Of a stretch of 64,000 nt of DNA, positions 6,003 to 44,543 are shown in pieces. Source of the DNA: Eubacteriales bacterium (GTDB lineage Bacteria; Bacillota; Clostridia; Oscillospirales; CAG-272); assembly GCA_045632285.1 (NCBI GenBank), contig JAZQWJ010000037.1, positions 22,251-86,250 of the forward strand. Reading direction: 5' to 3'. The number at the start of each line of letters is the position of its first letter. Within the stretch, counting starts at the first letter, position 1. The position numbers and the translations under genes are program-made. Below the pieces are notes generated by a model. That model was given only the letters and a program-made list of their open reading frames with translations. It had not been told where the DNA came from and did no database searches.

Positions 6003-6007
6003 TTCCG

Positions 6008-7120: not shown

Positions 7121-7129
7121 AGGACTCCT

Positions 7130-10762: not shown

Positions 10763-11521
10763 TTAAGCCGTAGCATCGGTCAACGTGATGTAGACCTTGA
10801 TCACAGACTGCGTGGCAGTACCGCTTTCATAATTGACGAACAGACCGTCGCCGTCAATAGCATCGGCAGCGATCCTTTGGGTCAGGGCCTCGTCGAAATA
10901 GGCGGCTTCAAAAACCTTGCCCGCCACCTCGGGGAGATCCTTCATATCCCATTTTTCACGTCTTTCATTCCATTTGGGCATAGTCAGATCGATCTTGCGC
11001 TTGCTGCCGATCTGTTCAAAGGAGCCATCCTCCTTTTGCGCATAAAACTCATAAGTAAAGGAAGGGATCCAGGCAGCATACAGCGTCATTTCGCCGTTTT
11101 CAAGTGTGCTGGGGTCGATCACGTCATTGGCAAAATCCCAAAGCCCGGAATACACGTACTGCCCGGGAGTGACCTCGGTGCGACCGGTATACCAGCCCGC
11201 AGAAAAATACAGGATCCCGTCCTTGGATCTGGAGACTCTGAATACCCCGTCCTCTCCCCTTGCGGGATCCTCGGGGGCAAGCACGCGAATGCCGGTCTTT
11301 CCGTTTGCTGTAACAGTTGCAGAGGCGTCATAGGCCTCTACGACCGTTACGCCCTGGGTATCGTTGACAAGACCGCCGTCTCCCACGTCAAAGCGGACGC
11401 GGACGGCATAACCCTCTTCGGCAAGATCCTCATAGATATTGCCGCTTCCGCAGGCTATCGCGCTCATGGCTAATGCCATGAGCAGGATAGCGCAGATAAT
11501 TTTAATGATCGTCTTTTTCAT
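10763..11521 (-). CDS. Lipoprotein with InlB-B-repeat/Flg_new-like beta modules
   Basis: Start trimmed to the ATG at 11521 (MKKTIIKIICAILLMALAMSAIACGSG lipobox). The 41 upstream codons of the ORF lie inside the protease gene. Motifs FSAGWYTG and TLYAAW. 20-nt out-of-frame overlap with the protease stop. Confidence 0.6.
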   Translation of the reverse strand: MKKTIIKIICAILLMALAMSAIACGSGNIYEDLAEEGYAVRVRFDVGDGGLVNDTQGVTVVEAYDASATVTANGKTGIRVLAPEDPARGEDGVFRVSRSKDGILYFSAGWYTGRTEVTPGQYVYSGLWDFANDVIDPSTLENGEMTLYAAWIPSFTYEFYAQKEDGSFEQIGSKRKIDLTMPKWNERREKWDMKDLPEVAGKVFEAAYFDEALTQRIAADAIDGDGLFVNYESGTATQSVIKVYITLTDATA

Positions 11522-18929: not shown

Positions 18930-19215
18930 TGTGTTTTTCACCTTTCGTTATGGATTTTCCACGTGGATAAATATACGATTGTCGCATAGATACTATATTA
19001 TAGCATATTGTAGCATTTTTCGCAATAGGTTTTCGCAAACTGCACTGTAAAAGTTACAATTTTCACATTTATGCAAAAAACACGCGAAAAAGTAAATAAT
19101 TTTGCATAACCCATTGCATTTTTCGCGAATTTATGTTATTCTAAATGTGTATGCCCTTTATCACTTGAATTTGCATCCTTTCGATAGGCAAAAATCAAAA
19201 AACAGGAGAGTTCTT

Positions 19216-22200
19216 ATGAAAAAAATGCTGCGAATCCTTTCTCTGCTGCTGGCGCTTTTGATGGTGCTGACAGCCTTTGGCGCCATGATCGGCTGCGGAG
19301 AAGATCCCGTTCCGCCCCCCGCTCCCGGTCCCGAGGAGCCGGACGGCCCCACTCCCCCCGCACCCGGCCCCGACGGGAAGGCCACTTACACCGTCAGTGT
19401 AAAAAGCATTGGCGGCCGCGCCTTTGCCGATCTGCGCTTTTTCGTTTACGAGGGTGACGCCCTGAAGGGCTACGGCACCACCGATGCAAACGGCATCGGC
19501 ACGGTATCTTTGGTTCCCTCTACCGGCTACACCGTCGAGCTGGACGCCGCCAACCTGGAGGGCTATAACGTCCAAAGCAGATACAGCTTTGTGGGCGCCT
19601 CGGCCGCGATCGTGCTGACCTCCTCCATCATTACCGACAGCGATCTGACCGGCGTGACCTACAAGCTGGGTGATATCATCCGCGACTTCACCGTCACCAC
19701 CACCGACGGCACCCCCTTCACGCTTTCCGAGGCGTTTGAGGATGGCAAAAAGGCCGTGCTGATCAACTTCTGGTTCTCAACCTGCAGCCCCTGCATCAAC
19801 GAGTTCCCCTTTATCCAATCCGCCTACGAGCAATATTCCGATGACATCGAGATCATCGCACTGAACAATTATCCCACGGATAACGAGGCGACCATCTCTG
19901 CCTTTAAGGATCAAATGGGCCTTTCCTTCCCCGTAGCCAAGGATTATACCGGCATTGGCAACGCCTTTGGCATTAACGCATACCCCACCTCTATCATTGT
20001 TGACCGCTATGGCACCATCTGTCTGATCGAGGCAGGCAGCCTGCCCAGCGAACGCCCCCTTGTGGCCGCCTTTGAGCACTTTTCTGCCGACAACTACGTA
20101 CAAAAGCTCTTTACCAACGTGGCCGAGCTGACCCCCACTGAAAAGCCCAATGTTGAGATGCCCTCCTCCGAGGAGATCGGCACCGCCATCAACGGCAACG
20201 GCTTTGCCGCCAGCTACTACCCCGAAACAGAGTCGGCCGACGCCGAGTTCTCCTGGCCCTTCCTGATCGGCACCACGCCCGACGGCAAGAGCTGCATCTA
20301 TCCCGCCAACTCCTTTAAGCCCGAGTCCTTTGCAACGCTGCACGCCGACGTACAGCTGGAGGCCGGTCAGGCACTGGCCGTTGACTGGTTTGCCGACACC
20401 GAAAAGGCCAATGACGTCCTTTACATTCTTGTAAACGGACGCGACATCTACCGCATCTCCGGCACCAGCGAGGATTGGTCGACCTGCTACCCCTACGTTG
20501 CCACCGAGACCGCCACCTACAAGATCAGCTTTATTTATCTCAAGGATGGCGACACCGATGCCGAGACCGACCGCGTGCTGCTCTCTAACCTCCGCACCGT
20601 TTCTGTCAATGACGTCAATACCCCCACCTATATCCCCCGCGAGGCTGCGACCAAGCCCAATGCCAACGGTCTTGGCTTTCAAAATTACGTGACCGTTGTC
20701 TTTAATGAGACTGACGGCTATTGGCACGTCGGTGCAGCCAACGGCCCCATCCTGCTGGTCGATCTGATGGCCGGCACTCAGCTCAGCCCCGACACCTCGC
20801 TGAACGACCTTGGCTACGCCGGTAAGCTGGTAGACACCGACGGCGATATTTACGAAGAGCTTGTCACCTATGCCAATTATGCCATCAACGGCACGCTTTA
20901 CGGCTATTCGCCCGTAACTGCCGAGCTGCGCACCCTGCTTGAGCGCGCCGCCGAGATCGTAGGATTTGAGAGAGGCAATGCGAACCAGTGGCTGCAGGCC
21001 TGCTCTTACTACGATGCCTATGGCACCACCCAGCAGCTGGAGGACCCCGTTAAGGGCGTTGCCTTCTTTGCCGCCTTTGACACCGTTCTCGGTACCAAGG
21101 AAGATCCTTTTTATAACGCCGTAGAATACGACGGCCGCGTGATCATGCCTCGCGGTCTGAAATACAAGTTCGTTCCCGCTCGCTCCGGCGCTTACCTCAT
21201 CAAGTCTCAAAGCACCGACGAGGTCAACGGTTGGATCTTTGACGATGCGTATGAGATCATACACACCGCATCGGTCGTTGACCGCCCCTACGGCAACAAC
21301 GTGATCGACACCACGAATGTGTCTATGCTGGTCTACCTTGAGGCAAACGAGGTCTACTATATCGACATTGCCTATTACGACGTCTACGCCGCAGGCAGCT
21401 TTACCTTTACGGTGGAATATCTGGCAGAATCCTACCGCCACTTCCATCTGGCCTCCCCCGCTTATTTCACCTATATCGAAAGCACCTCCGGCTCGATCAA
21501 CGAGACCATTGCCGGCGGCATTGACGTGGTGCTGGGCGAGGATGGCTATTACCACGAGCTGAAGGCAGACGGATCGATGGGATCGATCCTTTATGCCGAC
21601 TTTATCCTGTCCACCGGTATGTTCTCCACCTCCATTGAGAGCATCATCGCAAACAACGGCTTTAACTTCTCTCTTAGCGAAAGCGACCAGATGGTTCTTT
21701 CCAAGCTGGAAGAACACAACGGCAACGTTGAGAGCTGCCGCGCATACTACAAGGAGCTGTGGGGCGACGCCTATGACGAATGGGCCGAGATCTACAAGCT
21801 GGAGGAGGTATTTGCAGGCAAGTATCACGGCGGCGTTCCGCTGACCGACGAGATCGTTGCCCTGTGCAAGCAGGTGCAGACCAAGCTTGCCGCCCTTTCC
21901 GGAAACGCCGAGGCGTGCCGCACGTATTTCACCACTCTTTGGACCGCCGACGGTGCAAAGATGACCTTTGCCCAGAGCTACGCGCTGGAGCAGGTGCTTG
22001 CAGACGAGTACGAAAACGGCGTGATCGATCTGACCGATGTGATCGAATCCTACAAGGCATACAAGCTCCCCACCTCTGCCGATGCCCCCGAGCTTGAGGG
22101 CTGCGTTGCCGTAGACGAGACCCTGGCACAGCTTTTGCAGGCGCTGATCGACAAGTACTCCTTTACAGGTGTTGACCACGCTTGGACCAAGCTTTGCTAC

Positions 22201-22233
22201 TACTACAAGGATCTGGGCCCCTCTAACCCCTAA
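19216..22233 (+). CDS. Surface lipoprotein: CarboxypepD_reg-like Ig domain + TlpA/ResA-type thioredoxin fold (CSPC) + large uncharacterised C-terminal region
   Basis: Start trimmed to ATG 19216 (MKKMLRILSLLLALLMVLTAFGAMIGCG lipobox), after AGGAGAG. Pro-rich linker. Redoxin motif AVLINFWFSTCSPCINEFP (TGC..TGC at 19783-19794). The C-terminal module is shared with the next gene. Confidence 0.8.
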   Translation: MKKMLRILSLLLALLMVLTAFGAMIGCGEDPVPPPAPGPEEPDGPTPPAPGPDGKATYTVSVKSIGGRAFADLRFFVYEGDALKGYGTTDANGIGTVSLVPSTGYTVELDAANLEGYNVQSRYSFVGASAAIVLTSSIITDSDLTGVTYKLGDIIRDFTVTTTDGTPFTLSEAFEDGKKAVLINFWFSTCSPCINEFPFIQSAYEQYSDDIEIIALNNYPTDNEATISAFKDQMGLSFPVAKDYTGIGNAFGINAYPTSIIVDRYGTICLIEAGSLPSERPLVAAFEHFSADNYVQKLFTNVAELTPTEKPNVEMPSSEEIGTAINGNGFAASYYPETESADAEFSWPFLIGTTPDGKSCIYPANSFKPESFATLHADVQLEAGQALAVDWFADTEKANDVLYILVNGRDIYRISGTSEDWSTCYPYVATETATYKISFIYLKDGDTDAETDRVLLSNLRTVSVNDVNTPTYIPREAATKPNANGLGFQNYVTVVFNETDGYWHVGAANGPILLVDLMAGTQLSPDTSLNDLGYAGKLVDTDGDIYEELVTYANYAINGTLYGYSPVTAELRTLLERAAEIVGFERGNANQWLQACSYYDAYGTTQQLEDPVKGVAFFAAFDTVLGTKEDPFYNAVEYDGRVIMPRGLKYKFVPARSGAYLIKSQSTDEVNGWIFDDAYEIIHTASVVDRPYGNNVIDTTNVSMLVYLEANEVYYIDIAYYDVYAAGSFTFTVEYLAESYRHFHLASPAYFTYIESTSGSINETIAGGIDVVLGEDGYYHELKADGSMGSILYADFILSTGMFSTSIESIIANNGFNFSLSESDQMVLSKLEEHNGNVESCRAYYKELWGDAYDEWAEIYKLEEVFAGKYHGGVPLTDEIVALCKQVQTKLAALSGNAEACRTYFTTLWTADGAKMTFAQSYALEQVLADEYENGVIDLTDVIESYKAYKLPTSADAPELEGCVAVDETLAQLLQALIDKYSFTGVDHAWTKLCYYYKDLGPSNP

Positions 22234-22327: not shown

Positions 22328-23605
22328 ATGAAGTACAATAAGCCCTTGGCCTTTTTCTCCCTGTTTATTTTATTGGCGCTTACCCTGTGCGCGGCGATCG
22401 GCTGTAGCACAAACGAGCCGCCCGCACCCGAGCCTCCTGCGCCCACTACCGCCACCTACAGTGTGACGCTTTTGGACGGCAACGACAATCAGATGAACGG
22501 TGTGATCGTCAAGGTCTTGAAGGGTGATGCAGAGCTGAACATGATCGCCTATAAGGGCGAGACCGTTACCTTTGAAGCCGATATCGACACCTACACACTG
22601 TCGCTGGATCTTTCTCAGCTGGCAGAGACCTATACCTATGACACCGCTCTTTGCACCCTGACGCCCGACTCCCCCTCCACCACGATCCGACTGCTACAAA
22701 AAAGCACGGTGAGCGAGTCTGTTTTTGTAGGCGACCCCATTGCCAAGGATTATAACGCACAGCTGATCGGCGTTGGCGCCTATGCCCTGGACCTGACGCC
22801 GGGCGACTACACGTTCCTTATTTTCAAGCCCGATGCACCCGCCGTATATTCCGTGACCTATGAGTGTGCCGGTGCAGAGATCGGCTACCACGGTAGCACG
22901 TTTTTTGTACAAGGACGCGATATTGCTGACGGCTCTGACGACGTGCAGCACATTGAAAACGGTCTGTCGATCAAGTTTTATGCCAGCAACATCGGCAGTG
23001 ATCTTGTCTTTTCCATCAGGTCCGAAGCAGCTGCCACTGCCATCCTCCGCATTCAAGTTACCGGCGCACCTCCCATTAGATTAGAGGATCGCCCCTGGAC
23101 CCCCTTTACCGAGGATGCCGCCAAGGTGCAGCAGCATTTGAACGTGCCCAAGGTCGGTACGTGGAACAAGGTCGACCTCACCGATCTCACGCTGAATGCC
23201 GTGCTGAACGAGACCGATGGGTTTTATCATTTGGGAACGGCCGACGGCCCGATCCTGTTTATTGACTTGACCTCGGATACCCCTTACATCAACAGCGTAC
23301 AGACCATTTGCGCCAATCAACGTATGGGCATTTACGTTTATGACGACGCCGAAAACGTGATCGAAAAGCGCAGCTACAACGAGCTGTTCCACCAATACGG
23401 CATGCCAACAGACACCTCTGCCCCCGAGGGAGGAGCCATCCGTGTGCCTCTGACGGAAAAGCTGGCAGCAGCCATCCGCGAATTTGGCGAAAAGAGTGAA
23501 TGGTGGAAGGCCGGCTCTGAGAAAAACCTCTTTACCCGCGAGATCGCCGACGCCGTCTATAACCAAAGCTTTGCGTGGCTCCTCTTCTGCGGATATTACG
23601 CCTGA
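22328..23605 (+). CDS. Surface lipoprotein, paralogous to the C-terminal region of the preceding gene
   Basis: Start trimmed to ATG 22328 (MKYNKPLAFFSLFILLALTLCAAIGCS lipobox), after GGAGG. Ig-like N-domain (YSVTLLDGNDNQMNGVIVKV). Shared module LNETDGFYHLGTADGPILFIDL, versus FNETDGYWHVGAANGPILLVDL in the upstream protein. Confidence 0.75.
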   Translation: MKYNKPLAFFSLFILLALTLCAAIGCSTNEPPAPEPPAPTTATYSVTLLDGNDNQMNGVIVKVLKGDAELNMIAYKGETVTFEADIDTYTLSLDLSQLAETYTYDTALCTLTPDSPSTTIRLLQKSTVSESVFVGDPIAKDYNAQLIGVGAYALDLTPGDYTFLIFKPDAPAVYSVTYECAGAEIGYHGSTFFVQGRDIADGSDDVQHIENGLSIKFYASNIGSDLVFSIRSEAAATAILRIQVTGAPPIRLEDRPWTPFTEDAAKVQQHLNVPKVGTWNKVDLTDLTLNAVLNETDGFYHLGTADGPILFIDLTSDTPYINSVQTICANQRMGIYVYDDAENVIEKRSYNELFHQYGMPTDTSAPEGGAIRVPLTEKLAAAIREFGEKSEWWKAGSEKNLFTREIADAVYNQSFAWLLFCGYYA

Positions 23606-23727: not shown

Positions 23728-24996
23728 ATGAAAAGAAATACCCTTCACAAGCTTTTGATCGCCCTTGCCCTGCTGCTGAGCATTGCTCTGCTTGCTTGCG
23801 CTTGCGGCAGCACCCCCGATCCCGTGCCCGCCCCCGATCCCGAGACCCCCGAGGATCCTACCCCCAAGCTGACCTATACCGTGACCGTGACCGATGAGGC
23901 CGGTGCTCCTGTTTCGGATGCCACCGTACGCATCTTCTCCGGCACTGCCGAAAAGGGCACCGCCACCACCAACGCCTCCGGCGTGGCCACCCTTGAGGTC
24001 GAGGAAGGTCTTTACACCTCTGTTAAGGTTTCCAAGACCGGCTACGTTGAGCAAGAGGCCAATATTCCTATGGACGTCAAGAGCGTATCCGTACGCCTTG
24101 CTACAGACAACAATGCCACCTACACCATTACGGTAGAGGACTTTAACGGCAACCGCCTTGCCGGCGTAGCCGTTAAGATGTGCATCGGCGAGCTTTGCCG
24201 CATCCCCGGCGTGACCAACGCTAACGGCGTTTCTGTGCAGACCTGGGAAAAGGGCGATTATAAGGTTGAGGTCATTCTTTCCGGCTACTATACCGAGGAT
24301 CAGTATCACTACTTTGAAAACGGCAGCACGGAAATGACCATTACGATGATCCCCAACCCCGGTTGCGAGGCAAACCCCTTTAGATTTGAAAATTTGGAAA
24401 ACAACAGTATTACCGTCCCTGCCGGCAAGACCGTGTATTACACCGGCCGCGTCATGGGCACGACAATGACGCTGCTGGGCACCGATGTGACCGTTCGTCA
24501 CGACGGTCAGGATCACACCGCCGTGGGTGGCGTTGTCACCATTGAAAGCTGCAAGGGCGATATCTACGCTCCCTCTCTCTTTGCGATCACCAACAACGGC
24601 ACCGCAGAGGCCACCTACACGGTCAGCTTTGCACACCCCGTCGGCTCTATGGAAAACCCCGCCCCCCTGACCATTGGCAGCAACAGCGCCAACACCGGCA
24701 GCAATGGCTATTTTTACACCTACACCGCCACCGAGGCAGGCACGTTGACCATTACGATCGACACAGGTTGCGCTGATTGGAGCTATACGATCAACGTATA
24801 TCCCGTCGGGCACGACGATGACTATGAGGACGAGATCGAGCCCGCTTACGGCAACACCTACACCTCTGCCGATGACACCCCCGTGGCAACCCAATCCGTC
24901 AGTGTTCCGGCCAATGCCGTGGTCGAGATCACCATCGCTGCCGCGGCAGAATCCGCCACCGTTCCCTTTACCGCAAGCTTTGAGCCCAATACTTAA
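23728..24996 (+). CDS. Surface lipoprotein with CarboxypepD_reg-like and pre-peptidase-C-terminal-like beta domains
   Basis: MKRNTLHKLLIALALLLSIALLACACGS lipobox and a Pro-rich linker. TYTVTVTDEAGAPVSDATVRIF..NASGVATLEV pattern, with a second copy YTITVEDFNGNRLAGVAVKM..NANGVSV. Confidence 0.7.
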   Translation: MKRNTLHKLLIALALLLSIALLACACGSTPDPVPAPDPETPEDPTPKLTYTVTVTDEAGAPVSDATVRIFSGTAEKGTATTNASGVATLEVEEGLYTSVKVSKTGYVEQEANIPMDVKSVSVRLATDNNATYTITVEDFNGNRLAGVAVKMCIGELCRIPGVTNANGVSVQTWEKGDYKVEVILSGYYTEDQYHYFENGSTEMTITMIPNPGCEANPFRFENLENNSITVPAGKTVYYTGRVMGTTMTLLGTDVTVRHDGQDHTAVGGVVTIESCKGDIYAPSLFAITNNGTAEATYTVSFAHPVGSMENPAPLTIGSNSANTGSNGYFYTYTATEAGTLTITIDTGCADWSYTINVYPVGHDDDYEDEIEPAYGNTYTSADDTPVATQSVSVPANAVVEITIAAAAESATVPFTASFEPNT

Positions 24997-25010
24997 TGCC
25001 TCTGATTCCC

Positions 25011-25053
25011 GTTGCGGCACCTGCCATATGGTAGGTGCCGCAACGTTTTTTTG
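25011..25053 (+). terminator. Intrinsic terminator
   Basis: CGTTGCGGCACCT-loop-AGGTGCCGCAACG followed by TTTTTTT. Confidence 0.8.
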
Positions 25054-25081: not shown

Positions 25082-25110
25082 TTGATTTTGCGGAGATTTT
25101 GCGATATAAT
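25082..25110 (+). promoter_or_regulatory. SigA-type promoter of the CXXC-membrane-protein / NapH-Trx unit
   Basis: TTGATT, 17 nt, then TATAAT. Confidence 0.55.
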
Positions 25111-25169: not shown

Positions 25170-25961
25170 ATGTCACAGACAACCATAAATCGCATCAAGC
25201 TGATCTACGGGATCCTGCTCTCGGCCCTGCTTGTCGTCAGCGGCATATTGCTGATGATCGCCTGTGTCAGCATCTATCGCATTGGCGAAGAACCCTTCAC
25301 CCCCCAAAATATTGCCAATGCATTCAGCAAGGTCTGCATTCCCGTTTACATCACACTAGGATCCGTGGCGGTTGGCCTGATCTTTTGGATCATCTACCCC
25401 AACGAGCAAAAAAAGCCCAAGCCATCGGTTGGCGAGCGGGTGCTACTGGAGCGCCTTGCGCAAAAGCTGAACATTGACGAAAACTGCCCTACCGAGCCCC
25501 AAATGATCATCAAAAAAGAGAAAAAACTGCGCCTTACGCTCCGCATTATCACCTTGGCACTATGCGTGCTGGTTTCGCTGCCGGGCTTGATCTACGCGCT
25601 GAACCTTGGCCACTATCACGGTGCCGAGACCTGTAACAGCGATATCATCGCCGCCTGCCTGTGGCTGCTGCCCTGTGTATTTGTGGCAACCGGCCTTTGT
25701 GTGGCGCTTGTCTATTTAGAGCATGCAAGCCTGCAGCGTGAATTAGAGGCCGTCAAGCGTATTGCAAAGGTCTGCGGTATGCGCCGTACCCAAGAAGAGC
25801 CTGCACCTATCGCCAAAAACGGCCGCGTCATCTTGATCGTTCGCATCGCGCTGGCGGTTGCCGCCGTCGGGCTGATTATTGCCGGTATTGCCAACGGCGG
25901 TATGGCAGACGTGCTGGCAAAGGCCATCAACATCTGCACCGAGTGCATCGGTCTTGGCTAA
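25170..25961 (+). CDS. Polytopic membrane protein ending in a CXXC motif (CTECIGLG)
   Basis: 263 aa with about 5 hydrophobic segments. Last residues are ...GGMADVLAKAINICTECIGLG (TGC..TGC at 25935-25946). The terminal ICxECIGxG signature recalls, from memory, small 'CD1871A family CXXC' proteins found beside 4Fe-4S membrane proteins; this is unverified. The stop overlaps the AAGGAGG RBS of the next gene. Confidence 0.6.
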   Translation: MSQTTINRIKLIYGILLSALLVVSGILLMIACVSIYRIGEEPFTPQNIANAFSKVCIPVYITLGSVAVGLIFWIIYPNEQKKPKPSVGERVLLERLAQKLNIDENCPTEPQMIIKKEKKLRLTLRIITLALCVLVSLPGLIYALNLGHYHGAETCNSDIIAACLWLLPCVFVATGLCVALVYLEHASLQRELEAVKRIAKVCGMRRTQEEPAPIAKNGRVILIVRIALAVAAVGLIIAGIANGGMADVLAKAINICTECIGLG

Positions 25962-25975
25962 GGAGGTGCCGTAAC

Positions 25976-27556
25976 ATGAAAAAATTCATCGCATGGATCA
26001 AAAAGCACCTTCCCTCTAAGCGCAAACTGATCCAGGTCTATGCTGCCCTGCTTTTTAACGCCAATCTCAAGGGCTTTGGTAACGGAAAGATCTATACGGG
26101 TCCCCTAAAAAACATCTGCACCCCCGGTCTCAACTGCTATTCCTGCCCCGGTGCATCAGGTGCCTGCCCCTTGGGCGCGCTGCAAAATTCCTTGGCTTCT
26201 GCCAATAAAAGCGCCCCCTATTATATGTTTGGCATCATCATATTGTACGGTTTTCTGTTTGGCCGTTGGATCTGCGGTTTTCTCTGTCCCTTTGGTCTGA
26301 TCCAGGAGCTACTGCATAAGATCCCCACCCCCAAGCTGAAGAAAAATCGCGTTACCCGTGTGCTTTCTTATTTAAAGTACGTCATACTGGCCTTTTTCGT
26401 GATTCTGGTTCCTCTCGCCTATATGCTGCGCAAATTCCCTCTGCCCGGATTTTGCAAATACATCTGCCCCGCCGGCACGCTGGAGGGCGCTATGGGTCTG
26501 CTATCCAACAAGGTCAACGAAAGCTCGCTGCGTATGCTTGGCCCGCTGTTTACGTGGAAATTCCTGTTAATGGTCTCTATTTTGGTGGCCAGCGTCTTTA
26601 TTTTCCGCTTTTTCTGCCGTTTCCTCTGCCCCCTGGGCGCGCTTTACGGCCTGTTCAACAAGATCTCGCTTGTAGGCGTTAAGGTGGAGCGTGAGGGATG
26701 TACCGACTGCGGCATCTGTGTGGATCATTGCAAAATGGATATCAAGCACGTGGGCGACCAAGAGTGCATCAGCTGCGGTGAATGCATCGGCGTTTGCCCC
26801 ACCAAGGCCATCAGCTGGAAGGGCTCTAAGATCTTCCTCGCCCCCAACGCCATCGACGTGCCTGTGGACGTGGATCAGGAGGCTAAGGCAGAGATCATTG
26901 CATACAACGAGGAGCGCAGCAAGCGAATCGCCAAGCGCAATAAGATCATCAAGATCACCGTGGGTGTGCTGATGATCGCCGTACTGGCCGGTGCGCTGAT
27001 CTACTACAACTTTATCGACGGGCGCGACACGCAAGCACCCGAGATCCCCGAGCCGCCCGCAATTGAGGCGCCGGAGGGCGATACGCCCCCCGAGATCCCC
27101 GTTGGCCCCAACGTCGGCAATCTCTGTCCCGAGATCGCGCTGGACGTGCTGAACAAGGAAAACGACTTTGCCCTCTCCGCCAACCGCGGCAAGGTGACGG
27201 TGCTAAACTTCTGGTACACCACCTGCGGTCCCTGCGTAGAAGAGCTGCCCCACTTTAACAACGCGGCAAACACCTACGGCGACAAGCTGTCATTGATCGC
27301 CCTGCACATTCAGTTCCCGGGCATGACTGCGGCAGACGTCCCGGTTTGGGTATCCGAAAATCACCCCGAATGGAGCAGCGGCAATATGCTGATTGCTTGG
27401 GATACCGACGGTACCTATCAAAAGTATTTCGGCATTCAAGCCTGCCCCGTAACCATCGTGATCGATGGCAACGGCATCATTTCCGACAAGTTTGTCGGAA
27501 AGGTCAGTGAAGAAAAGCTGATCGAGGCTGTTGAAAAGGCGTTGGGCGAGCAATAA
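25976..27556 (+). CDS. NapH/MauN-like membrane 4Fe-4S protein fused to a C-terminal TlpA/thioredoxin-fold domain (CGPC)
   Basis: Start trimmed to ATG 25976 (MKKFIAWIKK). CYSCPGASGACPLG. Cys/Pro TM motifs ICGFLCPFGLIQE and FCRFLCPLGALYG. Two ferredoxin motifs, CTDCGICVDHC and CISCGECIGVCP. Then TM IIKITVGVLMIAVLAGALIYYNFI, a Pro-rich linker, and VTVLNFWYTTCGPCVEELP (27224-27235). Confidence 0.8.
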   Translation: MKKFIAWIKKHLPSKRKLIQVYAALLFNANLKGFGNGKIYTGPLKNICTPGLNCYSCPGASGACPLGALQNSLASANKSAPYYMFGIIILYGFLFGRWICGFLCPFGLIQELLHKIPTPKLKKNRVTRVLSYLKYVILAFFVILVPLAYMLRKFPLPGFCKYICPAGTLEGAMGLLSNKVNESSLRMLGPLFTWKFLLMVSILVASVFIFRFFCRFLCPLGALYGLFNKISLVGVKVEREGCTDCGICVDHCKMDIKHVGDQECISCGECIGVCPTKAISWKGSKIFLAPNAIDVPVDVDQEAKAEIIAYNEERSKRIAKRNKIIKITVGVLMIAVLAGALIYYNFIDGRDTQAPEIPEPPAIEAPEGDTPPEIPVGPNVGNLCPEIALDVLNKENDFALSANRGKVTVLNFWYTTCGPCVEELPHFNNAANTYGDKLSLIALHIQFPGMTAADVPVWVSENHPEWSSGNMLIAWDTDGTYQKYFGIQACPVTIVIDGNGIISDKFVGKVSEEKLIEAVEKALGEQ

Positions 27557-27564
27557 AATCAAAA

Positions 27565-27592
27565 GGGACGAGCGCTTGCTCGTCCCTTTTTT
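27565..27592 (+). terminator. Intrinsic terminator
   Basis: GGGACGAGC-GCTT-GCTCGTCCC followed by TTTTTT. Confidence 0.85.
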
Positions 27593-27680: not shown

Positions 27681-27774
27681 TGGCGGAGAAGGAGAGACTC
27701 GAACTCTCGCGCCGGGTTTAATCCGACCTACGCCCTTAGCAGGGGCGCCTCGTCACCAACTTGAGTACTTCTCC
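27681..27774 (-). tRNA. tRNA-Ser (anticodon GCT), long variable arm, CCA encoded
   Basis: The reverse complement reads GGAGAAG..TCAAGTTGGTGA..CGCCC-CTGCTAA-GGGCG..long arm..GAGTTCGAGTCTCTC-CTTCTCC-G-CCA. The acceptor stem is fully complementary. Confidence 0.9.
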
Positions 27775-27949: not shown

Positions 27950-27978
27950 TTGACATTCCAAGTACATCGTGGTAAATT
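27950..27978 (+). promoter_or_regulatory. SigA-type promoter for the ABC exporter / DUF1854 pair
   Basis: TTGACA, 17 nt, then TAAATT with a TGg extended -10. It lies inside the 5' end of the computed ORF 27969.., which argues against that GTG start. Confidence 0.55.
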
Positions 27979-28037
27979 GTAGGCACAACCGGAAAGGAGA
28001 GTCGTTTCCCTTTCATGGGAACGGCGCCAAATGGCAA

Positions 28038-30311
28038 ATGGAACTGAACTTTTTGACCAACCAGAAATTGGACGAGAAGCAGAGCTTGGCCTTGCTGGCC
28101 GAAAGCCACAAGGACGATCCGATCTTGTTTGCGATCATTGGTGAGATCTCAAAGGACGACCAATACCGCACCACTGCGCTGGCGGTGACGGCACGCTGTC
28201 TTTTCACCCTTGATTTTGAAACAGGACAAGCATCCAAACGGATCGCCTTTTCCGACATGGCCGATATTTTTACAAAAAGAATGTACGGCAACGGCCTCTT
28301 GCGTGTCAAAATGCAGGATGGCAACATTTGTGACGTTTTTCGCTTCACCTTTACCGTAGCGGGTCTTTGCGATGCCGCCATTGCCTTTGTGCAGGGCGTA
28401 CGCAAGGGCTCTCCCATTGCCGAGGAGATGGAGTCTATCGAGGGCGCTTATGAAAAGCTACTTTCGGTCTGCCCCAAGTGCGGACGCACCCTTTCCTCGC
28501 CCGGTGCACCCTGTATTGGCTGTATGAACAAGGGTAAGCTGTTTAAAAAGCTGGGCGCTTATCTCAAGACCGAAAAGACCATTTTGATCATATCGGTGCT
28601 TGTTTCGATCATCACAACGGCGCTGGCTCTGGTGCCACCGTTCCTAACGCAAACGCTGGTGGATGATATTTTGCCCAACAAGCAGCGAACGATGCTTCTG
28701 ATCGTTTCACTTTCGCTAATCGGCGTGCACGTGATCCGCTGGGCCCTGGCCGGCATCCGCGGCTATATGCTGCGTATCTCGGGCAACCGCATCGTGGCCA
28801 ATATCCGCCGCGACGTGTATGAAAAAGCACAGCATCTTCCTATGCGCTTTTACGATAAGACCTCTACGGGTGCCGTGATCAACCGCATCAGCGGTGACAC
28901 CGCCACCCTACAGGCCTTTATGCTCCGCGTGACGCAAGAAGTGGTGGTGCAGGCCTTTAAGCTGGTAGGCATCATTGTTGTTATGATGTGTATGAACCCC
29001 AAGCTCACGCTCCTGTCACTGATCCCGGTGCCCATCGTCGTCATCGGTTCCCGCATCTTTCGCAAAAAGATCGCACCCTTTTACCGCCGCATCTGGCGGC
29101 GCTCGTCGTCGGTCACTTCGGTGCTGACTGACACGATTCCGGGCATACGTGTGATCAAATCCTTTACCAACGAGAAAAATACCACCGACCGCTTTGCCGC
29201 CAGCGTAGAGGAATGGCGTATGACCGACACCAAGGCCGGAAAGATCTTAAACGCTTATCCCGCCATTGTCAACTGTCTGATCGCCTGCGGCTCTGTGGTC
29301 ATTTGGAGCTTTGGAGGCAATCTGGTCATTGACGCCATTGCAAGTGGCAACGTTGGCAGCCTTTCCATCGGTCTGCTGGTCTCGTTTATCTCCTACGCCT
29401 CGATGTTCTATGAGCCGGTCAACTTCTTTGCCAATTTTTCTGACTCTACCCAAAGCGCCATGGCCTCGGCCGAGCGCATTATGGACATCCTTGATGCCGA
29501 GCCCGAGCACGATTTCGGCAAGGGAAACACCAACGTCAATATGGGCGGCCGCATAGAGTTTAAGCACGTCAATTTCTCCTTTGACCGCACCAAAAAGGTG
29601 CTAAAGGACATCAATCTTGTCATCGAGCCCGGCGACATCGTCGGCATTGTCGGAACAACGGGCTCGGGCAAATCCACGCTGATCAATCTATTACTTCGTT
29701 ATTACGACCATTACAACGGCGAGATCACCATTGACGGCGTGAATATCCGCGATATTGACATGCAATTCTATCGCTCTCGCATCGGATACGTGCAGCAAGA
29801 GCCGATGATGTTCCACGACACCATCTACAACAACATTTCCTACGGTGACGATAGCTTTTCGGTGGATGAGGTCATCAACGCCGCCGATATTGCCAACGCC
29901 CACGAATTTATCGTCCGTCAGCCCGACGGCTATGATTCGATGCTGGGTGAACGCGGCGTCGGCCTTTCGGGCGGCGAGCGTCAGCGCATCTCCATTGCCC
30001 GCGCTATGCTCCGCAACCCCTCTATGCTGGTATTTGACGAGGCAACAGCCTCGGTAGACTCGGAGACCGAGCATCTCATTCAGGACGCCATCGAGCACTT
30101 GATTACCGGGCGCACCACCATTATGATCGCCCACCGCCTTTCTACCCTTTCCAAGGCCAATAAGATCGTGGTGGTAGACAACGGCAGCATCATCGAATGC
30201 GGCACGCCGCAGGAGCTGATGGAGTTGAAGGGCAAATACTATCGCCTGGTCGAGATCCAATCCATGTCGGACAAGGCGGCCGAGATCCGCCGCGCCGAGC
30301 GCTTTGAATAA
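28038..30311 (+). CDS. ABC exporter (fused TMD-NBD, MsbA/type-I fold) with extra N-terminal PH-like domain and zinc ribbon
   Basis: Start set to ATG 28038 (MELNFLTNQ). About 140-aa soluble N-domain, then CPKCGRTLSSPGAPCIGC, then a 6-TM domain. Walker A GTTGSGKST, signature LSGGERQR, Walker B MLVFDEATASVD. Confidence 0.85.
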   Translation: MELNFLTNQKLDEKQSLALLAESHKDDPILFAIIGEISKDDQYRTTALAVTARCLFTLDFETGQASKRIAFSDMADIFTKRMYGNGLLRVKMQDGNICDVFRFTFTVAGLCDAAIAFVQGVRKGSPIAEEMESIEGAYEKLLSVCPKCGRTLSSPGAPCIGCMNKGKLFKKLGAYLKTEKTILIISVLVSIITTALALVPPFLTQTLVDDILPNKQRTMLLIVSLSLIGVHVIRWALAGIRGYMLRISGNRIVANIRRDVYEKAQHLPMRFYDKTSTGAVINRISGDTATLQAFMLRVTQEVVVQAFKLVGIIVVMMCMNPKLTLLSLIPVPIVVIGSRIFRKKIAPFYRRIWRRSSSVTSVLTDTIPGIRVIKSFTNEKNTTDRFAASVEEWRMTDTKAGKILNAYPAIVNCLIACGSVVIWSFGGNLVIDAIASGNVGSLSIGLLVSFISYASMFYEPVNFFANFSDSTQSAMASAERIMDILDAEPEHDFGKGNTNVNMGGRIEFKHVNFSFDRTKKVLKDINLVIEPGDIVGIVGTTGSGKSTLINLLLRYYDHYNGEITIDGVNIRDIDMQFYRSRIGYVQQEPMMFHDTIYNNISYGDDSFSVDEVINAADIANAHEFIVRQPDGYDSMLGERGVGLSGGERQRISIARAMLRNPSMLVFDEATASVDSETEHLIQDAIEHLITGRTTIMIAHRLSTLSKANKIVVVDNGSIIECGTPQELMELKGKYYRLVEIQSMSDKAAEIRRAERFE

Positions 30312-30321
30312 GGGGGTTGCT

Positions 30322-30810
30322 ATGGGACGTATATACATTGACCAATACACCGGCCGCATCAAGCGCAGTGACATTTATTTGGTGACCTTGACGCTAAAAG
30401 ACGGTACCGTTATTGAGAATTTGGAACCAAGGCGCCTTTTTCCCGTAACCAACGCCGATATGTTTATCACGCTTTTGGATCATGATGAAAAGGAAGTCGC
30501 CTTTGTCCGCGACCTTGCAGAACTGGACGAAGGCTCTGCCAACGAGCTGCGCCAATGCTTTAAGGAATACTACCGCATCCCACACATTTTCAAGCTGCTT
30601 GAAAGCGACGAAAAGTTTGGATCTTTGACGTGGAAGGTAGAGACCGACCGCGGCACCGTATCCTTCCGTATCCGCAACCGCCACAGCGACATCAAATGTA
30701 TGAACGGAAAGCGCGTGCTGATCCGTGACACCAACGACAACCGCTATGAGATCCCGGACTATACCGCACTGGATCCGCACAGTCGCAGGCTGCTGTTTTC
30801 TTATCTGTAA
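30322..30810 (+). CDS. DUF1854-like protein (ABC-exporter-associated, function unknown)
   Basis: Start trimmed to ATG 30322 (MGRIYIDQYTG), after GGGGG. 162 aa. The sequence resembles the DUF1854 family as I remember it, which is typically adjacent to ABC ATPase/permease genes. Confidence 0.6.
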   Translation: MGRIYIDQYTGRIKRSDIYLVTLTLKDGTVIENLEPRRLFPVTNADMFITLLDHDEKEVAFVRDLAELDEGSANELRQCFKEYYRIPHIFKLLESDEKFGSLTWKVETDRGTVSFRIRNRHSDIKCMNGKRVLIRDTNDNRYEIPDYTALDPHSRRLLFSYL

Positions 30811-30961: not shown

Positions 30962-33900
30962 ATGAAACGCTTTTTTGCCTTGCTGCTTTCATGCTGCTTG
31001 TTGCTCCCACTGCTTGCCGTTGCACTCCCCGCCTCGGCTGCGGCGGCGCCTGTGTTGCCCGTTACGCTCTCACTTGGCTTCCCCGCCATCAAGGCCGATG
31101 CGGGTGACACGGTGGATCTTTCAATTTACAGCGTGACCGCCGACGACGGCAGCGTAATGCCTGCCTCCTCTATTACTTGGCAGTCAAGCGAGCTTGCGAT
31201 ATCGGATAACAAGGTAGCCCCTGCAAGCAAGGGCGTGTACCGCCTGACCGCCACGGCAAGCGAAAAGACCAAAACCGTCTATCTGCTGGTCAAGGACCTC
31301 ACCGATACCGAATACGTGCTGTTTGACGAGGATTTTGAGGACGTGACCTCTGTCGATCAGCTGCTGGATGCCGGCTATACCGTTGCGTACAAGTCCGATG
31401 CCGCCTCCATTTCGCTCTCCGACGGCAAGCTTGTGCTGTCGGGTCAGTCCCATAATGACTGCTATATCCGTTTACTGCTCCCTGCTTGGCTGGGCGACCT
31501 TGGCGACTATCGCATCGAGGTCAACGCCGCCATGACGGCACGCATTAAGGACACCCATTGGATGGGTATTATGTACCGTGTCCAAAACAGCGACTATCCC
31601 TACTATCAAAACACCTTCCGCGCTATTACCACCGCATATAACGGTACCGAGGTCGCCGAGCGCAATGCCTCCGATGCGTGGAACGTGATACACACCAATT
31701 CCTACACCACCGATATCAACAGCGGCAGCAGCACACCTGCCTATCGCAATTTTGCCGTAGAGGCCTTTGGCGACCGTGTCAATTCGATCATCGACGGCAC
31801 CGTTGTGGCCTCTGATATCCGCATTTCCAAATACGACCGCGGCCGTTTGGGCTTGCAGGTTCGTGCAAGTGAGCTCTCCGTCGAGCGCTACCGTGTGGTC
31901 ATCCCTGCCGAAACCGGGATCATTGAGGTAAACGACCCTCACTCCGACGTAGTCAATGCCCCCTCGATCATCACCGAGATCAACAGCGCATCCGCACTTT
32001 CCGCCCTCGCCGAAGGCGGCGTACTCCCCGCTACCGCTATTTTCCACGTAAACGGTGACGGCAACGTTACCACCCCCACGGGCGATGCCATTTGCTCACT
32101 TGACAACGCAATGGCGCTATTGCAAAATCGCGCGATCCCCGCCTTTTACGTCAGGGATACAAAAGCCGCAGATACGCTTGGCACGTGGTTGAAGGATAAG
32201 GGCCTAAAGGATGCCTTTGTGGTGTCAAATGTCGCAAATTTGATACAACGTGTGCGGAATTTCGCAACGATCTGCCGTGGCGTGCTGGATCTCTCCGGTC
32301 GTGATCTCACAGGCATCAGCGCCGCTTCCCTGCGTGCAGAGGTCAATAACTGCGGGGCTCGTGTGGCCCTGCTCCCCTCCAACTACGCCGCCCGCGATAC
32401 CGTCACCGCTCTGCACGATCTGGCAGTGGCTGTATGGACAAGAGAGGCCGCCGACAGCGATGTTGCCCGCATGAGCGCAGTTCTTTCGGGGGCGAACGGT
32501 GTTGTGACAAGCGATCCTCAGGCTCTGGCCGCCTGCTATACCGCATATTTTATGCCAAGCACGCTGATCGCCTCCCCCGGCATCATCGGTCACCGCGGTT
32601 CCCCCATCCACGCCCAAGAAAACACAGTGGAGGGTGCGCTGCTTGCCATAGAGCTTGGCGCCACCCTGATCGAGGCCGATTTTTATTTGACAAAGGATAA
32701 CTTTGTTGTCACCATGCACGATGCCGACATTTCCAGAACCACCAACGGCTCGGGCAACGTGAGCAGCTTTACCTACGCAGAGCTGTCTGCCTTTCTTGTA
32801 GATGACAACGCCGACGTTGCGCCCAAGCCCATCCCCCTGCTGTCCGATTATTGCGCCGCGCTAAAGGGCAAGGACGTCCGCCTGGTGATCGAGATCAAGG
32901 ACGGCAACACGGCCATCTGCCAAAAGATCGTAGATGTCATCGACAGCTACGGCATGCGAGATCAAGTGGTCATCATCTCGTTTGACACGAAAATCCTGAC
33001 CGAGTGCAAGACAGTTTGTCCCGAGCTTTCCGTGGGCTGGCTCGGCAACCTCTCCATGAGCTATGCTGCGGCTGAAAGCGATCCCGAAAAAGCACTTGCC
33101 GAGATCCTGCCCATCGTGCAGCAATACGAGTCCACCTACAACCCCAAATACAACAGTATCGGCCTCAATCTTGTCAGGGCCGCCAACCACCGCGGCGTGC
33201 TGATCCTGCCTTGGACCATCAACAGCAAAGCCGATTTTGACAAGATGTTCCGCTATGGCACTCATGCCTTTACCACCGACTATCTCAACTGGATATCAAG
33301 CTATATAAAGGACCTGAAGACCGATCAAAAAACCTATATAACCAATACCGTTGGCGGGGATATTCCCTTGTCGCTTCACGCCGAGGCCTATAACGGTGCA
33401 GTGACAGCGCCCGCCCGCGCCACACTGACCGTAGTGGAGCAAAGCGGCACGCTTTCTCTCTCCTATGAAAACGGAAAGCTGACTACAAGCGGCACGGGCA
33501 GTGCCACCTGCCTGCTGTCGGCATCCTTCTTCACCGCATCGGGCAGTATGTACAGCAAATGCACCGAGCTGTTCACCGTTACGGTAGACCCCCATTACGC
33601 ACCGCCCCTTGCCGCAGGCCGCTGGCATCTCGGCAACGGTGCGCCCACCACCCCTGCCGAGGACGATGCGCTGTATCTGGATCTTGACAGCGGCAACGTC
33701 TATGCCTTTGACGGCACGTGGCAGCTGACGGGCTCGCTGAAAAGCGAGGCGCCTACCGTGGAGATCGTGGGCGAGTTTTGGTACATCAATGGTGTCAATA
33801 CGAGCATCAAGGCCAAGGGGGAGGATGGCAAGGACGGTGCCGCAGGCACCATTGATGCCACGCTTTCCATCGGACAAAACGGGAACTGGATGATCGACGG

Positions 33901-34213
33901 AGCCGATACCGGCGTTGCCGCCACCGGTCCCAAAGGCGATACCGGTGCAACAGGCCCACAGGGTCCTGCCGGTAAAGACGGCAAGGACGGTGCCAACGGT
34001 CTACCCGGCAAGAAGGGCGAGAACGGTGCCAACGGTCTGGATGGCATTGACGGAAAGGACGGCGCAGACGGCAAAGATGCCACCGCAGACACCGCCGCAC
34101 TGGAAAGCGCCACAACCACAGCCGCCATCGCCATTGTGATCGCCTGCGTGCTGCTGGTGATCAACATCACGCTGATCATCTTTTGGCTGATCCGCAGAAG
34201 GCGACATTTTTGA
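30962..34213 (+). CDS. Secreted, membrane-anchored multidomain protein with a glycerophosphodiester phosphodiesterase (GDPD) domain and a collagen-like GXY tract
   Basis: Signal peptide MKRFFALLLSCCLLLPLLAVALPASAAAAP. GDPD motifs IIGHRGSPIHAQENT, EADFYLTKDNFVVTMHD. 17 uninterrupted GXY triplets (GPKGDTGATGPQGPAGKDG..., nt 33926-34078). C-terminal TM AIAIVIACVLLVINITLIIFWLI followed by RRRRHF. Confidence 0.8.
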   Translation: MKRFFALLLSCCLLLPLLAVALPASAAAAPVLPVTLSLGFPAIKADAGDTVDLSIYSVTADDGSVMPASSITWQSSELAISDNKVAPASKGVYRLTATASEKTKTVYLLVKDLTDTEYVLFDEDFEDVTSVDQLLDAGYTVAYKSDAASISLSDGKLVLSGQSHNDCYIRLLLPAWLGDLGDYRIEVNAAMTARIKDTHWMGIMYRVQNSDYPYYQNTFRAITTAYNGTEVAERNASDAWNVIHTNSYTTDINSGSSTPAYRNFAVEAFGDRVNSIIDGTVVASDIRISKYDRGRLGLQVRASELSVERYRVVIPAETGIIEVNDPHSDVVNAPSIITEINSASALSALAEGGVLPATAIFHVNGDGNVTTPTGDAICSLDNAMALLQNRAIPAFYVRDTKAADTLGTWLKDKGLKDAFVVSNVANLIQRVRNFATICRGVLDLSGRDLTGISAASLRAEVNNCGARVALLPSNYAARDTVTALHDLAVAVWTREAADSDVARMSAVLSGANGVVTSDPQALAACYTAYFMPSTLIASPGIIGHRGSPIHAQENTVEGALLAIELGATLIEADFYLTKDNFVVTMHDADISRTTNGSGNVSSFTYAELSAFLVDDNADVAPKPIPLLSDYCAALKGKDVRLVIEIKDGNTAICQKIVDVIDSYGMRDQVVIISFDTKILTECKTVCPELSVGWLGNLSMSYAAAESDPEKALAEILPIVQQYESTYNPKYNSIGLNLVRAANHRGVLILPWTINSKADFDKMFRYGTHAFTTDYLNWISSYIKDLKTDQKTYITNTVGGDIPLSLHAEAYNGAVTAPARATLTVVEQSGTLSLSYENGKLTTSGTGSATCLLSASFFTASGSMYSKCTELFTVTVDPHYAPPLAAGRWHLGNGAPTTPAEDDALYLDLDSGNVYAFDGTWQLTGSLKSEAPTVEIVGEFWYINGVNTSIKAKGEDGKDGAAGTIDATLSIGQNGNWMIDGADTGVAATGPKGDTGATGPQGPAGKDGKDGANGLPGKKGENGANGLDGIDGKDGADGKDATADTAALESATTTAAIAIVIACVLLVINITLIIFWLIRRRRHF

Positions 34214-35897: not shown

Positions 35898-35971
<74 letters not shown>

Positions 35972-35977
35972 TTGTAC

Positions 35978-36054
35978 GCGCCTTTAGCTCAGCTGGATAG
36001 AGCAACTGCCTTCTAAGCAGTAGGTCGGGGGTTCGAGCCCCTCAAGGCGCGCCA
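35978..36054 (+). tRNA. tRNA-Arg (anticodon TCT), CCA encoded
   Basis: GCGCCTT paired with AAGGCGC. D-arm GCTCAGCTGGATAGAGC. Anticodon arm ACTGC-CTTCTAA-GCAGT. T-loop GGTTCGAGCC. Confidence 0.9.
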
Positions 36055-36071
36055 CTGCAAAAACTTTATAT

Positions 36072-36149
36072 GGTGAGTGTAGCTCAGTTGGTTAGAGCGC
36101 CAGGTTGTGGCCCTGGAGGTCGTGGGTTCGACTCCCATCACCCACCCCA
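36072..36149 (+). tRNA. tRNA-His (anticodon GTG) with G-1, CCA encoded
   Basis: G-GTGAGTG..GCTCAGTTGGTTAGAGC..CCAGG-TTGTGGC-CCTGG..GGGTTCGACTCCC..CACCCAC-C-CCA. There is one A.C mismatch (4:69) in the acceptor stem. Confidence 0.85.
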
Positions 36150-44472: not shown

Positions 44473-44543
44473 TTCGTTCTCCCCTTTTCTGTTGCTTCTT
44501 CTATTATACACCGTCAGGATCGATTTAAAACGAAAATCGCGTT

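Follow-up and report, generated by a model that had tools for sequence, protein, structure and literature searches.

This report concerns two adjacent genes, here called gene 1 and gene 2, on a 64,000-nt stretch of assembly GCA_045632285.1 (contig JAZQWJ010000037.1, forward strand, 22,251-86,250); the whole stretch is termed the window, and all coordinates are given in its numbering. Our preferred reading, held at slightly better than even confidence, is that the two genes represent, in fused form, an envelope redox system of three modules that is conserved in Clostridia and brings cytoplasmic reducing power to a surface thioredoxin. Judging by homology, the modules are probably a NapH-like membrane protein of four helices whose 2x[4Fe-4S] ferredoxin domain is cytoplasmic, a CD1871A transmembrane (TM) helix with a CxxCxGxG tail, and an outer thioredoxin of the TlpA/ResA type. 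The first and third are joined in gene 2, and the second forms the C-terminus of gene 1. The unit is laid out as follows.

25010-25045, + strand: terminator-like hairpin of the upstream lipoprotein gene (16-bp stem with 11 GC pairs, then a T-run)
25082-25110, + strand: promoter-like, sigma-70-like site TTGATT-17-TATAAT (10 of 12 consensus positions; a consensus match alone, which says nothing on function)
25170-25961, + strand: gene 1, 263 aa, five TM helices, TAA stop at 25959-25961
25961-25966, + strand: ribosome-binding site AGGAGG of gene 2, read from the sequence and overlapping the gene 1 stop
25976-27556, + strand: gene 2, ATG start, 526 aa; Fer4_5 core, ferredoxin domain, TM helix, linker and thioredoxin domain
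27561-27590, + strand: terminator-like hairpin after gene 2 (the T-run follows on the + strand; the scan reported the - strand)

The genes are co-oriented and 14 nt apart. A preliminary description of the locus had portrayed them as a two-gene unit with its own promoter, terminators on both flanks, a 14-nt gap and a ribosome-binding site overlapping the first stop; all of these elements are present where it had placed them, and the predicted hairpin at 25010-25045 isolates the unit on its 5' side. Its account of gene 1 as a protein of about five TM helices ending in CTECIGLG was likewise correct (263 aa, ending ...KAINICTECIGLG), and its list of gene 2 motifs was recovered by sequence reading and profile searches (PF12801, Fer4, PF08534, NF040920).

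Gene 2 matches the Fer4_5 family PF12801 in three stretches (73.1 bits; cut-off 22), Fer4 families at aa 235-300 and the Redoxin family PF08534 (55.3 bits; cut-off 26.6), with the Redoxin/AhpC-TSA domain at aa 380-513. The sequence CYSCPGASGACPLG lies at aa 54-67. To the previously listed CX3CP-type motifs ICGFLCPFG and FCRFLCPLG can be added a third, FCKYICPAG, together with the invariant C48 and a weak first TM helix at aa 17-35. Alignment of 64 homologues and Kyte-Doolittle hydropathy, used for TM helices throughout, define these elements.

26117-26176, + strand: four-Cys motif in predicted outer loop A (C48, C54, C57, C64; ICTPGLNCYSCPGASGACPLG), invariant in the 64 homologues
26273-26296, + strand: CX3CP motif 1 (C100, C104), predicted at the inner end of TM1; invariant, a canonical NapH motif, also in NapH and YccM
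26453-26476, + strand: CX3CP motif 2 (C160, C164; FCKYICPAG) in predicted outer loop C; subfamily-specific, absent from NapH and YccM
26615-26638, + strand: CX3CP motif 3 (C214, C218), predicted at the inner end of TM3; canonical NapH motif, invariant
26678-26824, + strand: ferredoxin domain with two CX2CX2CX3C motifs (C242-C252, C264-C274), predicted cytoplasmic; all 8 Cys invariant
26945-27001, + strand: extra TM helix, aa 324-342 (Kyte-Doolittle 2.55), with a K/R-rich stretch before it
27002-27112, + strand: acidic Pro-rich (Pro/Glu) linker, aa 343-379 (family-averaged net charge -6.2)
27113-27514, + strand: TlpA/ResA/DsbE-like thioredoxin domain (PF08534), active site WYTTC417GPC420VEE423LP at 27224-27235 and just after

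Twenty Cys are invariant across the alignment: C48/54/57/64, the three CX3CP pairs, the eight ferredoxin Cys, and C417 and C420 of the thioredoxin domain, where E423 and P425 are invariant too. The best PDB matches of this domain are extracytoplasmic thioredoxin-fold proteins named TlpA, ResA, DsbE or StoA, which have the W..C..C..E.P context in common. On the strength of these matches and of the invariant C..C..E.P, the domain is assigned by sequence to the reductase class. Its predicted AlphaFold2 (AF2) structure, modelled from the 64 homologues, has a predicted local distance difference test score (pLDDT) above 90. A PDB sequence search returned no solved relative of the Fer4_5 membrane part.

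The CD1871A module of gene 1 comprises its last TM helix and its tail.

25848-25958, + strand: CD1871A-type module, gene 1 aa 227-263, last TM helix plus tail GGMADVLAKAINICTECIGLG-COOH (NF040920)

This region scores 36.7 bits against NF040920 (CD1871A_fam; cut-off 32) and spans positions 2-38 of the 38 in the model. In all 37 aligned homologues (36-53% identity) the final ~25 residues, GGMADVLxKAINICTECIGLG, are invariant; they are the most conserved part of the protein, so that conservation of the CXXC tail is confirmed. The other conserved part is the end of TM1 with loop 1 (C32, Y36, G39, PFT). By this alignment the four N-terminal helices are a poorly conserved, lineage-specific addition. 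The preliminary description had taken the whole membrane protein as the partner of gene 2; the final helix and tail, a module of ~45 aa, are upheld as the conserved partner, and the four preceding helices are not. Gene 1 is thus a long form (263 aa, five TM helices) of a family whose short forms have 44-60 aa and one TM helix; no short form occurs in the 80 related loci described below. UniRef labels some 45-aa CD1871A peptides (P0326, P0327) 'Thioredoxin', which is probably a naming error because they have a single TM helix and a CxxC but no thioredoxin fold.

The same modules are encoded separately in other Clostridia. A tblastn search of plasmids with the NapH-like part led to the 809-kb replicon of Peptoclostridium acidaminophilum DSM 3953 (47% identity), and one with the gene 1 tail gave one match. 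In the RefSeq record of this replicon a gene for a 45-aa 'CD1871A family CXXC motif-containing protein' adjoins, with an 8-nt overlap, one for a 280-aa '4Fe-4S binding protein' that contains all the same Cys motifs and ends right after the ferredoxin domain; 1.5 kb upstream of the pair lies a gene for a 'TlpA disulfide reductase family' lipoprotein. The 45-aa peptide, used as a query, gave access to twelve further short-form loci (Vallitalea, Haloimpatiens, Clostridium, Lutispora, Caloramator and metagenome-assembled genomes). In all 13 loci a Fer4_5 gene of 270-310 aa (~285 aa) lies directly downstream of the short CD1871A gene, overlapping it by 8 nt in most and abutting it or standing up to 4 nt away in three. 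Ten of the Fer4_5 partners were read and have the same Cys motifs as gene 2, the loop-A four-Cys motif being present in every one (10/10) and absent from Sulfuricurvum NapH and E. coli YccM. A Redoxin/AhpC-TSA gene is found within 6 kb in 11 of the 13 loci, directly upstream on the same strand in nine, and the eight Redoxin partners read all have a lipobox and the W..C..C..E.P active site, which marks them as lipoproteins. No neighbour with a DsbD/CcdA domain was seen among the Pfam assignments of the 12 looked-up loci, and none is annotated in the Peptoclostridium record.

That the three modules share one function is well supported at the level of gene organisation, since they are fused in one lineage and linked in operons in others. 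The system is not peculiar to the fusion: its split version is common, and the pieces have already been named separately by NCBI. A context rule derived here, which is not part of NCBI's definition, places CD1871A directly upstream of Fer4_5, and it holds for 13/13 short and 78/78 long forms. Two of the split loci have further features. In Clostridium argentinense (L084, 2223-4602; counted among the 11) an IS66 element (TnpB and transposase) separates the Redoxin lipoprotein gene from the CD1871A-Fer4_5 pair, and has apparently split the operon. In L087 (5078-8819) the Redoxin lipoprotein is fused to a rhodanese, and the Fer4_5 gene is followed by genes for an Rrf2 regulator and a Pyr_redox_2 disulfide oxidoreductase, which by family could be a regulator and a cytoplasmic electron source.

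The fused form is itself widespread. More than 120 clusters of full-length gene 2 homologues (57-79% identity) with the same Fer4_5 and Redoxin architecture came up in a protein search, and a scan of one genome per species found relatives of the fusion in at least 559 species. The best 80 of these, listed by name and fetched as loci, come almost entirely from gut and rumen metagenome-assembled genomes labelled Oscillospiraceae, Eubacteriales, Clostridia, Faecousia or 'Faecalibacterium sp. CAG:74'. The fusion is therefore not unique to this assembly. Upstream sequence was available for 78 of the 80 loci, and gene 1 is directly upstream of gene 2 in each of them, most gaps measuring -4 to about 25 nt. 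When 1.84 billion representatives were searched for the subfamily, 446 clusters (50% identity) matched at E <= 1e-30. Of these, the ~50 closest are long (490-820 aa), the five that were read all having a C-terminal thioredoxin-type W..C..C motif, and unfused relatives of 270-310 aa begin at about 49% identity and below. Unfused homologues stop ahead of the extra TM helix.

The fused proteins vary in their outer parts, through tandem thioredoxins and through inserts of leucine-rich repeats (LRR) or immunoglobulin (Ig)-like domains in the linker. Two tandem thioredoxin domains occur in the gene 2 homologues of L038, L042, L045 and L048 (match ~6001-8000), the second one in L048 being without CxxC, and a BspA-type LRR segment lies between the extra TM helix and the thioredoxin in L062 (6001-7875). 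The dipeptide within the thioredoxin CxxC also varies among homologues (GP, TP, SS, SA).

The predicted topology places the ends of this system on opposite faces of the membrane. Gene 2 has strong helices at aa 85-103, 133-151, 196-214 and 324-342 and the weak but conserved one at aa 17-35. The net charges of its segments, averaged over the family, are these.

N-terminus (17 aa): +6.5
loop A (49 aa): +2.8
loop B (29 aa): +5.1
loop C (44 aa): +2.2
linker after TM4 (38 aa): -6.2
thioredoxin domain (145 aa): -14.4

The thioredoxin domain is predicted to be extracytoplasmic, and sequence features support this well. The split-form thioredoxin is placed outside because it is a lipoprotein; since exactly one TM helix separates ferredoxin from thioredoxin in the fusion, the ferredoxin domain should therefore lie inside. 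The acidic linker and thioredoxin domain further support the outward location, as does the BspA-type LRR insert, of a kind typical of surface proteins, in the linker of one homologue. The earlier inference that the extra helix puts the CGPC domain outside thus draws support, as a prediction, from the split-form lipoproteins, the positive-inside rule, the acidic segments and the inserts. For E. coli NapH a four-helix topology with both termini inside was reportedly established by experiment (by Brondijk et al. in 2004), and the charges of gene 2 fit it. One paper puts the NapH clusters in the periplasm (PMC3475470). The corresponding charges of gene 1 are +2.6 (N-terminus), +0.4 (loop 1), +5.4 (loop 2), -1.5 (loop 3), +2.6 (loop 4) and -1.0 (tail). 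Its N-terminus is predicted to be inside and the CXXC tail outside, with loop 1, beside the invariant C32, also outside; the addition of four helices, an even number, would leave the orientation of the one-helix short form unchanged. The tail, the six subfamily-specific Cys and the thioredoxin are therefore all predicted to lie on the outer face, and the two canonical CX3CP pairs and the eight ferredoxin Cys on the inner face.

Gene 2 resembles NapH, NosR, RdhC (PceC), MauN, CcoG and YccM (Fer4_5, COG0348 polyferredoxins) in its four-helix core, the two CX3CP motifs at the inner helix ends and the C-terminal 2x[4Fe-4S] domain. It differs from them in six extra invariant outer-loop Cys, an obligate CD1871A partner and a thioredoxin output. 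Its scores of 78.8 against NapH/MauN TIGR02163 (cut-off 213.05), 57.6 against NapH NF007013 (cut-off 234) and 38 against NosR (cut-off 1000) are matched by low scores of the thioredoxin part against ResA NF002854 (58.9 vs 170), StoA (41.2 vs 210) and DsbE (37.3 vs 123), all below the cut-offs; it is therefore a relative of the NapH/MauN, NosR and ResA families and not a member. The profile search gave no FMN_bind match in gene 2, and no nap, nos or rdh genes lie nearby: around it stand genes for lipoproteins, a tRNA and an ABC transporter, in contrast to the true nap operon of L091. When gene 2 and four unfused partners were aligned with Sulfuricurvum NapH (from within a napAGH operon) and E. 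coli YccM, only the two canonical CX3CP motifs and the ferredoxin Cys were common to all. The CD1871A-partnered subfamily is defined, in this alignment, by its six extra Cys, because the loop-A four-Cys motif (between helices one and two) and the third CX3CP (between helices three and four) are absent from NapH and YccM.

The individual parts belong to known families (Fer4_5, TlpA-like Redoxin, CD1871A). Like members of NF040920, gene 1 ends in ...KAINIC-x-EC-IG-x-G directly upstream of a Fer4_5 gene, but it has four helices more than the typical member of 44-60 aa with one TM helix. In the systems built from DsbD/CcdA and TlpA, ResA, CcmG, StoA or Etrx, the output is likewise a thioredoxin of the TlpA/ResA type, membrane-tethered or a lipoprotein, on the outer face, and the role, reducing power for envelope proteins, is likely the same. 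The membrane part, however, is here a NapH-like Fe-S protein with a CXXC micro-module and not PF02683, and the presumed donor is an Fe-S/ferredoxin centre instead of cytoplasmic thioredoxin. With ferredoxin:thioredoxin reductase (FTR) and heterodisulfide reductase (Hdr) the system has only the proposed logic in common, the reduction of a disulfide by low-potential Fe-S centres; no kinship in sequence was detected (no such family among the profile matches), and FTR and Hdr are soluble or on the cytoplasmic face. The idea of electron carriage to outer domains has been put forward before for flavinylated systems (Meheust et al. 2021, PMC8238504), in which NapH-like proteins are proposed as transmembrane electron-transfer modules for extracytosolic flavoproteins, the outer redox domain being fused or co-encoded. 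That domain is an ApbE-flavinylated FMN-binding one, whereas here a CxxC thioredoxin and a CXXC peptide take its place, and the paper contains no thioredoxin fusion. It was also the only hit for NapH-like/PF12801 with thioredoxin in the searchable literature, where no account was found of a thioredoxin output, obligate CXXC micro-module, outer-loop Cys signature or three-gene operon of this kind. The preliminary remark that no characterised system has this logic agrees with that search. No literature was found on CD1871A function, and the CD1871 of C. difficile papers refers to unrelated loci. Two other identities were considered and rejected: a ribosomally synthesised and post-translationally modified peptide precursor with its maturase, because the Fer4_5 protein is not a radical S-adenosylmethionine enzyme and the long form crosses the membrane several times, and a Sco-like copper chaperone, because the active site is WxxxCxxC of the TlpA type and not CxxxC plus His.

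The other features of the window are as follows.

11502-18941, - strand: 2479-aa surface protein with S8 subtilase, PA and Fn3-like domains and seven BspA-type LRR_5 stretches
19216-22233, + strand: 1005-aa lipoprotein with a lipobox, Pro-rich linker, short segment without Pfam match, Redoxin domain (WFSTCSPCINEFP) and ~690-aa domain
22328-23605 and 23728-24996, + strand: two lipoproteins with lipobox and Pro-rich linker, between the thioredoxin lipoprotein and the pair; they recur in about 28 loci
27681-27774, - strand: tRNA-Ser(GCT), convergent to gene 2, just past its terminator
27969-30810, + strand: ABC exporter (ABC_membrane and ABC_tran) with a ~200-aa N-terminal extension holding CPKC and CIGC, then a DUF1854 protein
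30962-34213, + strand: 1083-aa secreted protein with a glycerophosphodiester phosphodiesterase domain and collagen triple-helix repeats
35898-36149, + strand: tRNA-Gly/Arg/His cluster
42778-58305, - strand: ferredoxin-linked energy-metabolism block
42778-44472, - strand: Pyr_redox_2 and rhodanese protein resembling CoA-disulfide reductase
46061-47746, - strand: [FeFe] hydrogenase large subunit with NuoF/NuoE-like neighbours (by reading only)
52769-53260, - strand: 5-TM protein matching PF07456 ('heptaprenyl diphosphate synthase component I'), beside the Rnf genes
53639-54190, - strand: Rnf-Nqr membrane subunit
54816-56105, - strand: FMN_bind protein
57052-58305, - strand: RnfC-like protein

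The lipoprotein at 19216-22233 is, from its genomic linkage, a likely client or partner of the pair. The preliminary description had proposed this CSPC lipoprotein as a likely downstream partner, which is supported: in at least 39 of the 80 loci a homologue is encoded no farther than 6 kb from the pair, in one of two arrangements, upstream on the same strand or downstream and convergent. Its ~690-aa C-terminal region has no Pfam, NCBIfam or PDB match. The lipoprotein at 23728-24996 also carries a CarboxypepD_reg/Ig-like domain, and homologues of the S8 subtilase stand beside the gene pair in about 20 related loci, often divergently transcribed. The N-terminal extension of the ABC exporter is possibly a zinc ribbon; the exporter-DUF1854 pair is also found downstream of gene 2 in L011 (79% identity). 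The presence of Rnf subunits and an [FeFe] hydrogenase in the window indicates that ferredoxin is a central carrier in this organism.

The search for a conventional membrane reductant covered the locus flanks and part of the window. Profile searches found no PF02683 match in gene 1 or gene 2, nor in three scanned multi-TM open reading frames (ORFs) of the window with five or seven TM helices (40319-41554, 52769-53260, 53639-54190). The earlier statement that the window contains no ccdA or dsbD gene stands for these three, the remaining multi-TM ORFs lying outside the scan. No membrane ORF of CcdA size recurs in the flanks of the 80 loci, and none of ten scanned representatives is DsbD-like.

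In the mechanism that we propose, a low-potential cytoplasmic donor, likely reduced ferredoxin because the window encodes Rnf and an [FeFe] hydrogenase, would pass electrons to the ferredoxin domain of gene 2. They would then move to the two inner CX3CP Cys pairs and across the membrane to centres formed by the six outer-loop Cys and the two Cys of the CD1871A tail, which may be either extra Fe-S clusters or a dithiol/disulfide relay. From there they would reduce the CGPC disulfide of the tethered thioredoxin, which could in turn serve surface clients such as the co-located Redoxin-domain lipoprotein. We infer the donor, the membrane path, the chemistry of the outer Cys, the reductive direction and the clients from the arrangement of the modules. 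The number of Cys is suggestive, since four in the inner CX3CP motifs, four in loop A, and two in loop C with two in the tail would allow three further four-Cys sites.

Several points weigh against this reading. The Fe-S clusters as electron source, the outward flow and the role of the tail as a relay are inferred. Transfer from a one-electron Fe-S centre to a two-electron disulfide would need chemistry like that of FTR or Hdr, and the proteins have no detectable homology to those enzymes. Only about 8 Fe per protein are reported for NosR (cited in PMC5928378), a number that leaves none for the CX3CP motifs, and the assembly of Fe-S clusters on the outer face would be difficult; for both reasons a dithiol/disulfide relay is equally possible. 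The AF2 model has a pLDDT of only 50-60 in the membrane core. Two of the 13 split loci lack a Redoxin gene within 6 kb. Some members of the Cys-rich Fer4_5 subfamily (P0433, P0435, P0436, P0443; P0381, P0382, P0395) have C- or N-terminal multi-TM extensions of an unknown family instead of or besides the thioredoxin, and the core pair may therefore serve other outputs. Finally, a ccdA gene may lie elsewhere in these genomes.

The same machinery might run in reverse as a thiol oxidase, the outer thioredoxin taking electrons from Cys of exported proteins and the core handing them on, inwards, to a quinone or to an Fe-S acceptor in the cytoplasm, in the manner of DsbB or VKOR. Bacterial VKOR-thioredoxin fusions have a four-helix redox core, an extra TM helix and an extracytoplasmic thioredoxin-like domain, a layout that gene 2 mirrors, although they are quinone-dependent, unrelated in sequence, devoid of Fe-S clusters and directed towards oxidation. 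NapH has been described as a quinol dehydrogenase (PMC5928378; PMC3475470), flow from thioredoxin to quinone is thermodynamically downhill, and large Cys-containing secreted lipoproteins and a giant surface protease are encoded nearby. We nevertheless regard the oxidase as unlikely: the thioredoxin is of the TlpA/ResA/DsbE class and not DsbA-like, with the C..C..E.P context of reductases, and its variable CxxC dipeptide is reductase-like. The hosts, moreover, are strict gut anaerobes with ferredoxin-based metabolism, and a low-potential cytoplasmic ferredoxin domain would be a poor electron sink.

It is similarly improbable, in our estimation, that the thioredoxin is an accessory. The NapH-like/CD1871A pair would then do a non-thiol job, such as reducing a metal or some other acceptor outside the cell, in the way of CcoG, or supplying an unknown reductase, and the thioredoxin would only keep the outer Cys reduced or aid their assembly, being itself reduced by a CcdA encoded elsewhere. 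The two split loci without a nearby Redoxin gene and the multi-TM extensions in the thioredoxin position would be explained in this way, the outputs of other Fer4_5 proteins are varied (PMC8238504), and the ccdA negatives concern flanks rather than whole genomes. Fusion of thioredoxin and core has, however, been kept across hundreds of species, with the thioredoxin sometimes duplicated; in the loci examined no gene for a non-thiol acceptor or reductase recurs beside the pair, and no ccdA adjoins any Redoxin gene. An artefact, in which a frameshift or misassembly met a chance CXXC tail, has nothing in its favour and is excluded for all practical purposes by the >120 clusters, the species count, the tail invariant in 37/37 and the NF040920 match.

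Cytochrome maturation, spore cortex synthesis, methionine-sulfoxide repair and oxidative-stress defence are all served by thioredoxins of the envelope, which are thought to depend on DsbD/CcdA and, through it, on cytoplasmic thioredoxin. We tentatively suggest, with a little less than even confidence, that many Clostridia, including abundant gut Oscillospiraceae, have a second route for surface reductant, in which a NapH-like protein and a CXXC micro-protein wire the ferredoxin pool to envelope thioredoxins, replacing or bypassing DsbD/CcdA, perhaps via outer-face Fe-S/Cys centres. If true, a ferredoxin-fed Fe-S route would change the view of surface redox homeostasis in strict anaerobes. It would also give a testable role to the CX3CP motifs of the NapH/NosR/RdhC family, whose role is still called unknown (PMC5928378), and a function to the CD1871A micro-proteins and to hundreds of proteins whose sole annotation is '4Fe-4S binding protein'. 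The idea is directly testable, since there are cultured strains with the split version (Peptoclostridium acidaminophilum, Vallitalea pronyensis, Clostridium spp.). Thiol-based extracellular electron shuttling has been reported for Faecalibacterium (PMC4010535), and any bearing of the system on shuttling of this type is speculative. Because it belongs to dominant commensals of the gut, the system could matter for oxygen tolerance and for the repair of surface proteins.

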